From: a virus
Taxonomy: Duplodnaviria > Caudoviricetes
Reading direction: 5' to 3' (one strand)
IMG/VR virus record: IMGVR_UViG_3300035661_000005
DNA: 64,000 nt
Part shown: piece after piece, positions 2,867 through 34,339 of the stretch
How positions within the stretch are numbered: the stretch's first letter is position 1
Layout: each line of letters starts with the position of its first letter
Made by a program: the position numbers and the translations under genes
The notes under the pieces: model-generated
What the model saw: the letters and a program-made list of their open reading frames with translations, nothing else
Databases searched by the model: none
What the model was told of the DNA's origin: nothing

Positions 2867-3937
2867 ATGATCGCCGCCAACGTCGTACGTCGTTTCCTCG
2901 CCTCAGGCATCCCGGACCTGCAGGGCATCCAAGACAACCTGGAAGCGCTCAAGGAGCTGGATGCGAACCTCACTGGCATCGAGGATGCGTTCGATAACCA
3001 CTTCGATCTGACGGCGGCGAGCGCCCTGGAGCCTGTGGTCGACTCCCAGATCAAGAGCATCTTGAAGGCAAAGGAGGGCCTCAAGGCAGCCCAGGAGATG
3101 GTCAAGCAGACGGACATCATCCTGAACGCCTTCCCGGACGAGAAGGGGGCGCTCAAGACCAAGGCGGAAGCCGTCAAGATGGTCGAGCGCTTCACCAAGC
3201 ACATGGAGGCGGCGCGGAAGATCGTCCGGACCATCTCGAAGAAGGCTCAGCCGGACGCCCTCAAGAAGGAAACGGCCATCGCGGAGAAGCTCATCTCGGC
3301 GCGGCTGGTGAACCCGGCGGCCCTCGACGTGATCCACTGGCAGACGCTGGAGCGAGGCTACATCCCCGGGGCCTACGGCCGTGACCAGAACGTCAAATGC
3401 GTGACCATGCTCTCGATCTTCCGGATCGAGGGCTCGCCCTGGAAGCGCAACGAGGGGGAGCCGACCCTCCGGGAGTCCACGGACGCCCGCCTCCCTGGCG
3501 TTCACTGGACCATCGGCTACGAGCGGTCCGCCGGACCGTCGAGCGGCAAGGACTTCGCCGAGGCGGTCTTCAAGGCGCTCCGTGGGTGGCCTGGCCTCAA
3601 GGGTGAGGCCGAGGCTACCCAAGCGCGAGCGGGCACGGCGGCAGCCATCGCGAAGAAGCTCGACTCGGTCGCCCAAAGGCTCACTCGGCTCGACCACGAC
3701 CGCGTCGAGATCTCGGACGACAAGACGGAGATCTCCACGTCGTACCGCTCGAACCTCCCGAAGGAGGGTGCGTACGATGTGGGTTCGTCCCGTTACGAGG
3801 AGATGGTCTCGGCCGAGATCAATAGGTGTCGGAGGACGTTGGATCCGGAGATCGCCAACTGGAAGGACGCCATCAAGAGCGTCGACGTCCACGACGGCGA
3901 GAAGGGCTGGATCTACATCACGGTCCGGCTGAAGTAG
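2867..3937 (+). CDS. hypothetical protein with N-terminal VVRRFLA motif (putative virion cargo)
   Basis: 356 aa, starts MIAANVVRRFLAS, helical N-terminal half. Confidence 0.7.
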   Translation: MIAANVVRRFLASGIPDLQGIQDNLEALKELDANLTGIEDAFDNHFDLTAASALEPVVDSQIKSILKAKEGLKAAQEMVKQTDIILNAFPDEKGALKTKAEAVKMVERFTKHMEAARKIVRTISKKAQPDALKKETAIAEKLISARLVNPAALDVIHWQTLERGYIPGAYGRDQNVKCVTMLSIFRIEGSPWKRNEGEPTLRESTDARLPGVHWTIGYERSAGPSSGKDFAEAVFKALRGWPGLKGEAEATQARAGTAAAIAKKLDSVAQRLTRLDHDRVEISDDKTEISTSYRSNLPKEGAYDVGSSRYEEMVSAEINRCRRTLDPEIANWKDAIKSVDVHDGEKGWIYITVRLK

Positions 3938-3939
3938 GG

Positions 3940-3967
3940 TTGATCGGGGGCGTGTAGGCCCTGTAGA
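3940..3967 (+). promoter_or_regulatory. class A promoter-like motif TTGATC-N16-TGTAGA
   Basis: TTGATC 3940, TGTAGA 3962, ATG 8 nt after TGTA; same geometry at 10 other sites. Confidence 0.75.
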
Positions 3968-3973
3968 TGGATC

Positions 3974-4222
3974 ATGGCAAAGCTCACGAAGTTCTGGGTG
4001 GTCCGGGACCCGAGCCCCGTCTCCGAGATCAACGACATCCTCTTCGAATCCGATCCGGTCAAGTACGCGGCCTACTGCGTCGGGGCCGGGTACCGCAATG
4101 TCAAGGACGAGCACACCGCGGTATACACGACCGAGGGCGAGGCCAAGAAGGACGCCCTGGCGCGGCTCCAGGCGGAGAAGAAGCCCGTCTCGCCGTACCG
4201 TGCCCCGCCTCCCGAGGGGTAA
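3974..4222 (+). CDS. hypothetical protein
   Basis: 82 aa ORF directly after a class A motif. Confidence 0.7.
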   Translation: MAKLTKFWVVRDPSPVSEINDILFESDPVKYAAYCVGAGYRNVKDEHTAVYTTEGEAKKDALARLQAEKKPVSPYRAPPPEG

Positions 4223-4263
4223 CAAGTACGGACTAACCCCTCCCGGTGTAAAGAGAGGGTGCC

Positions 4264-31988: not shown

Positions 31989-32108
31989 TGGTGGTTGACG
32001 ATCCTCTCGCCGTCCCACACGAGGGTTTCCCGCAGGACCCGGGTAGCATCCTGTATGGTGTTGCAGCCGAGGATCGAGTACTCGGCGCAGACCGGAAACG
32101 GACCCCGA

Positions 32109-32756
32109 TCAACCCATGGTCAGGTTGACGTTCAGGATCAGGCGGCCGTTGCGGTGGTCCGACTCCACGTCGACCCCGACCCCGTGCGCGGCAGCCTGAC
32201 GGGCGGCCTGCTCCGTAGCCTCTTCGAGGTCGATCCAGAACTGGTCGTCCTGATCGGGGATCCCGTCGGCCGTGATCTGGAAGCCGTCTTCGTCGCGGGT
32301 CGACTTGAGGTGGACGGGACCGTAGGCCCGGGAGATGTAGGTCGAGGCCGCCTTCTCGGCCGCCTCGATGATCTTGTCCATGTCGGAGGCCACGTTGACG
32401 ATCTTGGCGTCGTCGAAGGCCCTCTGCATCTGTCTGGCCAGCTGCTCCTCGATACCCATCGACCACGCGCTGAGCATCGGGAGGGTGATGAACCACCAGC
32501 CGGGGTTCGACTCGTAGCGGTCCGGGGCCGAAATCGAGAAGCCGAGCTTCGCGGCATCCTTCAGGAAGTTCTCCCAGAGGGTGTCGATTTGCGCCTTGGC
32601 GCGGCCCGTCCCCGAGTGCGCGACGTCCTCGGCCAGCTGCATCGCGTTGTGGATGAGCTTCTGGATGAGGGGTTCGAGCATTCCGCCGGTCTTGCCGCTG
32701 GCGGTCTTCCACTGGAGGCTCGTCTCGGGCACGCCATCGCTTAGAACGCGGTTCAT
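32109..32756 (-). CDS. hypothetical protein
   Basis: 215 aa; TCTATC 20 nt upstream. Confidence 0.7.
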   Translation of the reverse strand: MNRVLSDGVPETSLQWKTASGKTGGMLEPLIQKLIHNAMQLAEDVAHSGTGRAKAQIDTLWENFLKDAAKLGFSISAPDRYESNPGWWFITLPMLSAWSMGIEEQLARQMQRAFDDAKIVNVASDMDKIIEAAEKAASTYISRAYGPVHLKSTRDEDGFQITADGIPDQDDQFWIDLEEATEQAARQAAAHGVGVDVESDHRNGRLILNVNLTMG

Positions 32757-32855
32757 GCCTTAGTCTCCCGGATAGAAGGATCTGCCTTGTGGGCTGCGGC
32801 GACGGGGGCCTGAGCCCCCACTTGTCGTAGTAGCGGACCTTGACCGCTAGTACCC

Positions 32856-32892
32856 CCAGGGCCGCGGGCCTCCAGGGCCGCGGGCCTCCAGG
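32856..32892. repeat. 16-bp tandem duplication, intergenic
   Basis: CCAGGGCCGCGGGCCT x2 plus CCAGG. Confidence 0.85.
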
Positions 32893-33010
32893 TGCGGCTC
32901 CAGGAGGCCCCCAAGGCTCCCTCGATGAGCGAGCGGGTCGCCGCTCGGGCCGCACACGCCCGCAAGATGCTCGTCCAGAAGTGGCGGGTAGTCTTGTTAG
33001 CCCTGCAAGG

Positions 33011-34339
33011 ATGATGGCCTCCCTGGCAGAGCGTGTGGCGACCCGGTTCCTTCAGGCGGACGCCATCGGGGATCCGAAGGAGCTGGTTCAGCCCTTTGCG
33101 AGCCTGGTCGACAGGCTTGCTGTGCATCGAACCGAGGCGGAGACGGCGCTCCCCTTCCTGCGACGGCTGCCCGACAACCTCCTGAGCAGTCTGAGCTTCT
33201 CGGATCGGCTCAGGGTCCGAGAAAGCGTCCCGGGGCTCGCGGAAGCCCTGAAGGTGGCCCATGAGGCATTCGGGGCCCTGACTTACCTGATCCCGAAGTT
33301 CGCGTACCCGGGCAGCCAACTCTTCCTCTCGATCATTCAGACGTACGCGCTGCCGGCGTCTCTGCGGAAGAAGATCGAGATGGCCTCCCGGACCTACATG
33401 AAGACGACCCGGCTGCGTTGGCCGAACGCCGAAGGTCTCTCGGGTGAGATCGCCCGCATCGAGGCGTACCTGAAGTACCTCGCCCTCTACGAGTCGCACC
33501 TCAACTACGCGAAGGAAGCCATCGCAAAGGGGAAGGGGCACACGGAAGAGGGCGCGGAGGCGACGAAGGTCCGCGTCGGCAGCTTCACGCTGGTCAACAC
33601 GGGCGGCTTCTCGGCGGAGGTCATGGGCAACGTCGCGGAGGCCATGAAGAAGGCCGAGGCGCTGCTCAAGTCCAGCGGGTTCGGCATCGTCTGCTACGGC
33701 GACGTGCAGGTCACCAACACGATCTCGAAGGGGAACGTGCTGGCTTTCTACCTGCCCAGCAAGGACGAACTGTTCATCCGGGCCAACTTGAAGCCGACGT
33801 CGGACAGCATCCACATCATCCTGCACGAGCTGGGGCACCGTTTCGAGGCGAAGAAGTTGTCCAGCCGAGCGGGTGACCTCCGACGCCTCTACAGCCTCAT
33901 CAATGGGCAGGAGTACACCCGCAAGAAGGAGATGCGAGCCAAGAAGCCCCCGATCGGTGACAAGCTGGTCGACAAAGGCAAGACCTACGAGGTGGCGGGC
34001 TACGACGTCGGCCGCAACGGGCTCATGGTCGTGCTGAAGCAGGAGGGCGACCCTCGGATCCAAGCCAAGGTCTCGCTGGAGGGCTACCTCAGCCGGAAGG
34101 GCGAGGGGGGCGCCCGCAACGTCGACGAGACGCCGGACTTCAAGGGCTTCGTCACGGAGTACGCGAAGAAGACCCCCTCCGAGAACTTCGCCGAGATGTT
34201 CGCCTACTACTGCATGGGGCGCCTGCCGGTGCTCCAGAGCGTGGCGTTCGAGGAGCTGTGTTTCGGTTCGTCCGACCCGCCGGGTGAGAGCATCTTCACG
34301 GCCCGGCGGGTCGTGGCCCGCTGGATCATTCAGATGTAG
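33011..34339 (+). CDS. divergent zincin metallopeptidase, tagged at both termini
   Basis: IILHELGHRF...FVTEYAKKTPSENFAEMF; N-term ERVATRFLQA, C-term RRVVARWI. Confidence 0.8.
   Translation: MMASLAERVATRFLQADAIGDPKELVQPFASLVDRLAVHRTEAETALPFLRRLPDNLLSSLSFSDRLRVRESVPGLAEALKVAHEAFGALTYLIPKFAYPGSQLFLSIIQTYALPASLRKKIEMASRTYMKTTRLRWPNAEGLSGEIARIEAYLKYLALYESHLNYAKEAIAKGKGHTEEGAEATKVRVGSFTLVNTGGFSAEVMGNVAEAMKKAEALLKSSGFGIVCYGDVQVTNTISKGNVLAFYLPSKDELFIRANLKPTSDSIHIILHELGHRFEAKKLSSRAGDLRRLYSLINGQEYTRKKEMRAKKPPIGDKLVDKGKTYEVAGYDVGRNGLMVVLKQEGDPRIQAKVSLEGYLSRKGEGGARNVDETPDFKGFVTEYAKKTPSENFAEMFAYYCMGRLPVLQSVAFEELCFGSSDPPGESIFTARRVVARWIIQM

Follow-up and report, generated by a model that had tools for sequence, protein, structure and literature searches.

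The window analysed here is the whole 64,000-nucleotide stretch of viral DNA in IMG/VR record IMGVR_UViG_3300035661_000005 (Duplodnaviria; Caudoviricetes). Its subject is a short basic peptide motif, hereafter the tag, found at the ends of several proteins encoded between positions 2,867 and 34,339. The DNA is phage-like, with 64% G+C and genes on both strands; no tRNA genes were found in it, and no close relative was found among deposited phage genomes. Gene prediction by a codon-usage model, trained on the sequence of the window itself, gave 108 genes, and gene starts are our own calls. Recognisable products are a dihydrofolate reductase (DHFR), a CN-hydrolase, a ClpX homologue, a DUF1848 protein, an HD-domain protein, Dam methylase, RNase HII, a GH25 endolysin, a PyrB-like transcarbamoylase, a 2H phosphoesterase and a type IB topoisomerase. 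Genes are named by their lower coordinate. The main tag-bearing features are as follows.

12207–12416, plus strand: ChaB-like gene, 69 amino acids; C-end cassette K-E-A-S-L-A-L-R-V-V-A-R-F-T-S-R, tag core at 12378–12410
20604–22259, minus strand: predicted HExxH zincin, 551 amino acids; strong C-tag ARVVARYLQ at 20613–20645, degenerate N-tag ERVARQFQA at 22218–22250
22256–23770, minus strand: predicted HExxH zincin, 504 amino acids; C-tag SKVVARFLK at 22298–22330, 15 residues from the end, degenerate N-tag DRISRTFEA at 23735–23767
23775–25049, minus strand: 424-amino acid protein; C-tag SARVVTRFLS at 23784–23816, N-terminal stretch related to 2H phosphoesterases, remainder without assignment
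26655–27149, plus strand: 164-amino acid protein with a GTG start; N-tag FRVVARFLE at 26661–26693 (9.1 bits)
27464–28291, plus strand: topoisomerase IB, 275 amino acids (Pfam Topoisom_I, 4.5e-27); N-tag TERVAARYKS at 27473–27505
28250–28282, plus strand: C-tag of the topoisomerase, K-S-A-S-E-R-I-V-E-R-Y-L
28288–28335, plus strand: 15-codon open reading frame (ORF) encoding MSLASRVLSRLVDPS and a stop; overlaps the topoisomerase stop codon
33011–34339, plus strand: predicted HExxH zincin, 442 amino acids; N-tag SLAERVATRFLQ at 33023–33055, C-tag RRVVARWII at 34298–34330

A first-pass annotation of this DNA had quoted 13 tag peptides, all of which we located at the named genes and ends, and had proposed that protein termini be compared with shuffled controls. 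The enrichment at the ends proved to be far above the shuffles. The strict pattern [RK][VI][VA]xR[FYW] has 9 matches in the 108-gene proteome, all of them terminal (5–7 residues from the start or 3–15 from the end), compared to a mean of 0.27 and a maximum of 3 in 2000 residue-shuffled proteomes. A looser pattern gives 13 matches, again all terminal, versus 1.04 expected. Six-frame translation of all 64 kb yields 11 strict matches in total, 9 of which are the copies in tagged genes. An independent profile was trained on the tags of topoisomerase homologues from other contigs, with the window's own topoisomerase tags included in the training. It finds 10 window matches of at least 4.5 bits, all within 30 amino acids of an end (binomial P = 2e-5); the next best window match scores 3.3 bits, and shuffled proteomes give 0–1 matches. 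The best match is 12207 with 17.0 bits, and six strong copies in the window are at C-ends. Chance as the origin of the tag is ruled out by the shuffled proteomes. The copies use different synonymous Arg and Val codons, which implies selection on the peptide and rules out a DNA repeat as their source. A Tat signal, for which the RRxFL in 2867 was considered, is ruled out as well, because no hydrophobic region follows it and C-end copies are incompatible with such a signal.

The protein bodies that carry the tag had been described as nine unrelated ones. Three carriers (20604, 22256 and 33011) are however paralogues and putative zincin-type metallopeptidases, all containing HELGHR, with weak Pfam matches to ATLF and Peptidase_Mx1 (for 20604, a weak ATLF match). 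The first two are closely related (E = 1e-87) and 33011 is distant (E = 9e-5). Apart from these paralogues and the short 2H-like stretch of 23775, whose family is known through the relative gene 55059, the bodies share no other similarity, so that what stands of the claim is about 6–7 independent bodies. Paralogy alone is ruled out, since relatedness is confined to the three zincins and one fragment. The ESM Atlas yielded no information on 23775 or 26655. As the first-pass annotation had stated, the tag is absent from the housekeeping enzymes DHFR, Dam, RNase HII and the PyrB-like protein, and the endolysin and ClpX also lack it. Weak copies, below 0 bits or unreported by the profile, are those of 2867 and 10723 and the N-ends of 20604 and 22256. 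The short ORF ahead of 33011 may be what is left of a duplicated tag, or may itself be an upstream ORF. The remaining rows are these.

10723–11517, plus strand: 264-amino acid protein; weak N-tag APKVMARFAA at 10732–10764, loose pattern only, backed by a degenerate N-tag in the orthologue in the related genome G001, which starts MSDLDLIARVAALH
2867–3937, plus strand: 356-amino acid protein; doubtful N-tag ANVVRRFLA at 2870–2902, loose pattern only, –1.1 bits, no orthologue found in G001
28332–28580, minus strand: 82-amino acid fragment without a tag, paralogous to the C-terminal domain of zincins 20604 and 22256
32892–33014, plus strand: short ORF containing PSMSERVAARAAH, just 5' of 33011 in another frame; tag-like (11.9 bits), with a tag-like start M-S-E-R-V-A-A-R-A-A-H-A-R-K...

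The topoisomerase has hundreds of homologues at 55–80% identity, on contigs of up to 570 kb, and nearly all of them start ...L-R-V-A-A-R-Y-K-S-K-K-K. Many have an additional N-terminal copy (M-T-S-S-L-A-L-R-V-A-A-R-F-Q-R-A...), others a C-terminal copy (...K-T-A-S-L-T-S-R-V-V-A-R-F-L...), and some are without either extra copy; in L007-type phages the topoisomerase has no tag. In a subset (G001 388395–389429; P0076, P0094, P0099, P0114) a conserved C-terminal extension, ...L-L-K-T-V-V-T-x-W-x-x-M-P-G-R-K..., replaces the C-tag. Among the ChaB-like homologues, a crude pattern count places the tag at the C-end after E-Y-L-K-G-[KR]-x-A-[SG] in 31 of 43. Four of the 43 (P0144, P0153, P0162, P0163) carry it instead at the N-end, followed by K-S-A-P, and P0156 has no tag and starts M-S-K-S-A-P. 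An initial scan for related loci with 33011 found none; its zincin family comprises 611 homologue clusters, and of the best 150 all but one (149) contain HExxH. In 57 of these best 150 an N-tag of at least 4 bits directly precedes the conserved G-D-P-K with which the domain begins, a minority have a C-tag after G-[TS]-x-K-T-A-S, and in many the first or last residue of the protein coincides with the domain edge. In three independent families, then, relatives differ in whether they carry the tag N-terminally or C-terminally, and a few lack it, so that the earlier proposal of a portable module is strongly supported by these comparisons; the tag also occurs at the junctions of fused domains. Two complete or near-complete genomes, G001 (IMG/VR UViG_3300022744_000001, 447.8 kb) and LR745208.1 (485 kb), carry the tag on about 8–12 of roughly 630 proteins each, mostly at protein ends (8 of 11 profile matches in G001 and 5 of 8 in LR745208.1); in both genomes, as in the window, this terminal location greatly exceeds chance. 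Searches with Pfam and PHROGs assigned almost no function to the tagged G001 proteins or to the G001 genes that share an upstream 9-mer described below. The observation is genuine: across a large uncultivated clade of huge phages, the tag is a conserved cassette of the short linear motif type and marks the boundaries of mobile enzyme modules. Among phage papers in the literature searched, none contained any of four common tag motif strings.

The extended consensus is [S/D]-L-[A/T]-x-R-V-[A/V]-A-R-[F/Y/W]-L, about 11 residues. R0 and R4, like V1 and F5, are spaced i/i+4, in keeping with a short amphipathic helix that would have both arginines on one face and L/V/F/L on the opposite one. In an AlphaFold2 model of the topoisomerase (69 homologues) the core has a mean pLDDT of 88.5, and both tags are predicted as low-confidence terminal helices (residues 2–10 and 261–274, pLDDT about 50–57), as expected for free docking helices. 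The C-tags are often preceded by a short linker. Within the 14 residues before the C-tag, [KR]-x-A is found in 21 of 42 topoisomerases, 19 of 26 ChaB-like proteins and 9 of 13 zincins, and homologues without a C-tag rarely end in it (Fisher P = 0.0016, 5e-4 and 8e-6, respectively). The N-tagged ChaB-like variants have K-S-A between tag and body. K-x-A-S motifs near the tags had been proposed to be prohead-protease sites. The linker beside the C-tags is conserved in three families and would fit a cleavable [KR]-x-A element, but it is missing from many tags.

In relatives, the same enzymes are found as domains of fused polyvalent proteins, which implies that the tagged genes of the window are unfused modules. 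Topoisomerase IB is one domain of giant proteins of 2806, 3098 and 1124 amino acids (on contigs L004, L005 and L006, respectively), together with a PolyA-polymerase-type nucleotidyltransferase head, an ATLF-like zincin, an intein and a HAD_SAK_1 phosphatase, and tags are located at the domain junctions of these giants. A tagged G001 gene of 86 amino acids recurs as a domain in the giant proteins of L004 and L005. In G001, two tandem tags join the orthologue of 12207 to a further module downstream within the same protein, with the junction ...K-G-K-N-A-M-D-D-I-A-L-R-V-A-A-Q-S-S-V-P-S-E-M-A-N-R-V-A-S-R-H..., and in zincin fusions K-x-A-[ST]-L-x-x-R-V immediately precedes the zincin domain. Split operons show the matching order of C-tag, stop, start and N-tag, both in the operon 23775 > 22256 > 20604, of which 23775 is the first gene, and from the topoisomerase to the ORF at 28288. 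The fused forms are equivalent to the split ones. This explains the tag at both ends, which had been regarded as unusual: the modules derive from, or alternate with, fused polyproteins that bear tandem tags at their junctions. The translation of the 15-codon ORF consists of the tag only, as first described, and by its sequence the ORF is a tag without a body, a relic of a lost downstream module.

The position of the fused and single forms in relatives links them to head genes. In LR745208.1, L004, L005 and L006 the large terminase gene is followed by portal (phrog_16240) and then by the topoisomerase or polyvalent gene; after these come two proteins of ~200 amino acids, head maturation protease (phrog_18299), proteins of ~430 and ~226 amino acids and the major capsid protein (phrog_2522, PF05065). 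The G001 topoisomerase gene lies between the terminase and portal genes. Passages of a survey of polyvalent proteins (PMC5512222) place the genes for minor proteins of the head interior and for packaged polyvalent proteins at such a location, beside portal and terminase. The conserved acidic ~200-amino acid protein that follows the topoisomerase or polyvalent gene has a K-x-A-S-S-F-G-L-F-type tail in L001, L004 and L006, and its L005 counterpart ends K-K-S-S-H-G-F. The scaffold-like protein of ~430 amino acids ends L-S-K-L-W-E-S-A-P-D-V-S-K-V-F-G in all relatives. These tails look like further terminal docking peptides of head proteins.

The G001 major capsid protein (L030:16552–17424) has 290 amino acids and is HK97-type. 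It is 88–96% identical among the 120 matches listed, with 2043 matches at E ≤ 1e-10 on contigs of up to 620 kb; by contrast, the cargo genes show only 35–80% identity. Cultured relatives by capsid protein are Tunturi_5 (47%) and Bacillus phage G (38%). In the closest, the Tunturiibacter phage Tunturi_5, no tag was found in 41 kb around the capsid gene. The N-terminus of the capsid protein contains Y-I-K-T-A-A-G, a candidate cleavage site that coincides with the start of homology to Tunturi_5, in a protein as conserved as the listed matches indicate. No cleavage data were found in the phage G paper.

Upstream motifs may provide a second link to head genes. All tagged genes had been assigned to units headed by a pyrimidine-rich element, termed class C and said to be shared with the endolysin. 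We describe it as TCT[AT]xT / CTCTTAT / TTCTACTTGT, a pattern picked after the sequences had been seen. Two instances are given here.

12168–12177, plus strand: upstream motif TTCTACTTGT, 39 nucleotides before the start of 12207; of the 9-mer class shared with tagged genes and one head-module gene of G001
27423–27432, plus strand: pyrimidine-rich motif CCTCTTATAC ahead of the topoisomerase gene; class C of the earlier description

Class C heads 7 of the 68 units of the window, namely 5 of the 7 tag-bearing units versus 2 of the 61 others (Fisher P = 4e-5 for this post hoc pattern). The association holds for these five units, but two tag-bearing units are not headed by the element and the endolysin gene does not have it. 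In the 447 kb of G001 the 9-mer T[CT]TACTT[GT]T occurs 8 times, and 7 copies lie 23–37 nucleotides upstream of a start codon. Three of these seven genes are N-tagged and one is close to the capsid gene, and the same 10-mer as the G001 element precedes 12207. This suggests that tagged genes may be co-regulated with head genes. A different, promoter-like pair, GTTGATC followed after about 17 nucleotides by TGTAGA or TGTAAG, is very regular and stands directly 5' of many window genes (e.g., 3974, 6553, 11582, 28682, 34330, 35173, 50262 and 59704), often on both strands between divergent gene pairs. Such a GTTGATC-N17-TGTAGA-type element is upstream of most units of the window.

The most likely function of the tag, at about even odds in our judgement, is that of a portable, probably cleavable, address for capsid cargo. 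The tag would mark movable enzyme modules of the clade's polyvalent cargo, comprising topoisomerase IB, HExxH zincins, ChaB-like and 2H-like proteins and other bodies. Late in infection the helix would dock a module or a polyprotein onto an inner component of the procapsid, which may be the scaffold, the capsid shell or the portal. The head protease may then cut at the [KR]-x-A linkers, and the enzymes would enter the next host together with the DNA. We infer docking, cleavage, packaging and injection from the motif, its observed placement at ends and junctions, its conservation and mobility, and the gene order in relatives. The synteny, the upstream motif and the polyvalent set of modules give circumstantial support to a role as virion cargo. 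The earlier suggestion of packaging into the head gains from the location in the head-assembly module of five relatives.

Two known systems are close to such an address. The internal proteins IPI–III and Alt of T4 carry an N-terminal capsid targeting sequence (CTS) (Mullaney and Black 1996; reviewed in PMC3012670). Like the tag, it is a short peptide common to diverse proteins, at the extreme end and near a site of the head protease, which the [KR]-x-A linker would parallel here, and the cargo, a proposed one in the case of the tag, consists in both of changeable, host-directed enzymes. Unlike the CTS, which is N-terminal only and belongs to a T4-type head with a scaffold core, the tag is found at either end, in tandem and inside fusions, and its genes accompany an HK97-type head module. 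We know of no resemblance in sequence between the two. Thus the tag shares with the CTS its presence at the extreme end of otherwise unrelated proteins, and departs from it in its strong C-end copies and in switching ends within families. DarB of phage P1, a large polyvalent protein that combines several enzymes, has its capsid targeting signal at residues 6–10 (Gonzales et al. 2022, PMC9024508), comparable to N-terminal tag copies that start at residues 5–8. The P1 signal is N-terminal and confined to one family, whereas the tag is on several families, at both ends and throughout a large clade. Short, transplantable peptides that load HK97-fold shells also include the C-terminal targeting tail of the HK97 maturation protease and the cargo-loading peptides of encapsulins. 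Their sequences differ from the tag, and they are single-ended with known binding sites on the shell protein.

The cargo itself resembles the polyvalent proteins of phages and conjugative elements, for which passages of Iyer, Burroughs, Anand, de Souza and Aravind (2017, PMC5512222) propose packaging, injection and processing by zincins. Relatives of the window encode proteins of 1100–3100 amino acids with zincin, nucleotidyltransferase, HAD and topoisomerase domains beside portal and terminase. Several effector domains and a zincin in one chain are found in L004, L005 and L006, and the location beside portal or terminase in these three as well as in G001 and LR745208.1. The modules of the window differ in being separate, single-module genes. 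In the searched passages of PMC5512222 we found no helix that delimits modules at junctions or ends.

Several points weigh against a capsid-cargo address. The clade has no cultivated tag-bearing member and no virion proteome, and no receptor for the tag was found. Known capsid targeting sequences are N-terminal only, and several tags within one polyprotein would be redundant for addressing. Outside the three families, by our own count, [KR]-x-A accompanies only about a quarter of the independent tags. The link to a promoter class was drawn after the fact and does not fix the time of expression. Finally, six small unrelated proteins of the window at 46531–59411 (genes 46531, 47490, 48049, 53130, 53562 and 59115) have another motif in common, [TSDA]-x-[WF]-[DE]-R-[LI]-L-x-D-D, no more than 14 residues from the C-end. 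This acidic motif could be a protease-type capsid-targeting tail and perhaps the true capsid signal. It was not found at C-ends in G001 and was found once, weakly, in LR745208.1. The head maturation protease of Tunturi_5 ends ...A-S-F-D-R-L-L-R-K, which resembles it.

Of the alternatives, a rather unlikely one is that the helix is a general docking motif that acts outside the capsid. It would join split modules from C-tag to N-tag, or bind a common cytoplasmic hub, to form a multi-enzyme complex for RNA or DNA repair or host take-over. The tandem tags at fused junctions, the C-tags followed directly by the N-tag of the next gene in 23775 > 22256 > 20604 and from the topoisomerase to the relic ORF, and the RNA-repair-type domains among the modules (HAD_SAK_1, PolyA_pol head, 2H) are all in keeping with such docking. 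However, N- and C-tags do not differ in their basic sequence and show neither complementary charges nor any preference for particular pairs, self-pairing of a helix of ~10 residues would be weak, and the position in head-assembly operons of relatives is left unexplained.

The association of [KR]-x-A with tags in three families also fits a cassette that is mainly a recognition and processing site for polyproteins, read by the head protease or the co-encoded zincins, and that in split genes would be a tolerated or activating remnant and not an address. Zincins are the most consistently tagged proteins and are, in passages of PMC5512222, the proposed processors of polyvalent proteins. The N-ends of split genes (M-x-S-L-A-E-R-V...) moreover mimic the product of cleavage after K-x-A in the fusions. 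We regard a processing site as doubtful, however, as the helix is retained in stand-alone genes at 35–80% identity, in which no cleavage is needed, and it is the helix and not the linker that is invariant, with many tags lacking [KR]-x-A.

Tethering to the zinc-finger N-domain of a host or phage ClpX, for timed degradation or for unfolding and translocation, was considered because the tag is similar to the SspB XB peptide; the window encodes a ClpX homologue.

4264–6522, plus strand: ClpX homologue with a zinc-finger N-domain; an intein with a LAGLIDADG homing endonuclease is inserted in the AAA+ module

The E. coli SspB XB peptide, RGGRPALRVVK-COOH, binds the zinc-finger N-domain of ClpX from any position in the chain (Park et al. 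2007; PMC3983244, PMC12373786), and the ClpX of jumbo phages has been suggested to translocate unfolded proteins or to aid assembly (PMC7824862). Like XB, the tag is a terminal, position-independent short motif with (L)RVV; copies read ...ALRVVARF or LALRVAARY, and the window, G001 and the related genome G002 encode a ClpX with a zinc finger. Only R-V-[VA] is shared, however: the preceding Leu varies in the window, and the Arg at +4 and the aromatic residue at +5 have no counterpart in XB. The XB peptide binds ClpX as a strand, whereas the i/i+4 pattern and AlphaFold2 indicate a helix for the tag. Moreover, LR745208.1, G003 and G004 are tagged, the last two on a topoisomerase polyprotein, and lack a phage ClpX zinc finger. 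No ClpP was found in the five relatives examined. A complex prediction of two copies of the phage ClpX N-domain with Zn and the 12207 protein gave a score of 0.02, which weighs neither way. The ClpX tether gained no support, with the failed co-occurrence of tag and phage ClpX and the lack of a phage ClpP, and we give it a slim chance; host ClpX might still be the partner. Slightly slimmer still is that of an AAA+ unfoldase, phage or host ClpX, reading an XB-like 'RVV' through its zinc-finger N-domain and threading the enzymes into the procapsid or removing them on schedule. If true, a tag read by ClpX would be a motor-driven system for protein loading or timing in a phage head that has not been described before. 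The G001 ClpX orthologue has 426 amino acids, no intein and the end K-Q-A-S-F-G. Inteins recur in the clade, as one is present in the L004 polyvalent protein (L004:4010–12430) as well as in the window ClpX.

A short, basic, amphipathic helix at extreme ends, with avidity from two copies, might also hold injected or early enzymes at the inner membrane in the manner of MinD or FtsA. Membrane helices usually conserve amphipathicity only, and the conservation of R0, V1, R4 and the aromatic residue at position 5 is tighter than usual for them; the synteny with head genes would also be unexplained, which makes membrane targeting highly improbable. That the motif has no function and reflects chance, a translated DNA repeat or the shared ancestry of the carriers, three of which are paralogues, is a negligible prospect given the 9 matches against 0.27 in shuffles, the differing codons, the dissimilar topoisomerase, ChaB-like and other bodies and the conservation in distant genomes.

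Huge phages of this capsid type are abundant in metagenomes, and those that bear the tag are uncultivated. If the tag is indeed an address for capsid cargo, one address would work at either protein end and within fusions, which would explain how cargo shuffles between giant proteins and single genes. A profile of the tag would list the enzymes that each phage probably injects, including topoisomerase, zincin proteases, nucleotidyltransferases and RNA-repair-type enzymes. It would thereby point directly to new proteins for counter-defence and host take-over, and a portable loading tag for HK97-type shells could follow.

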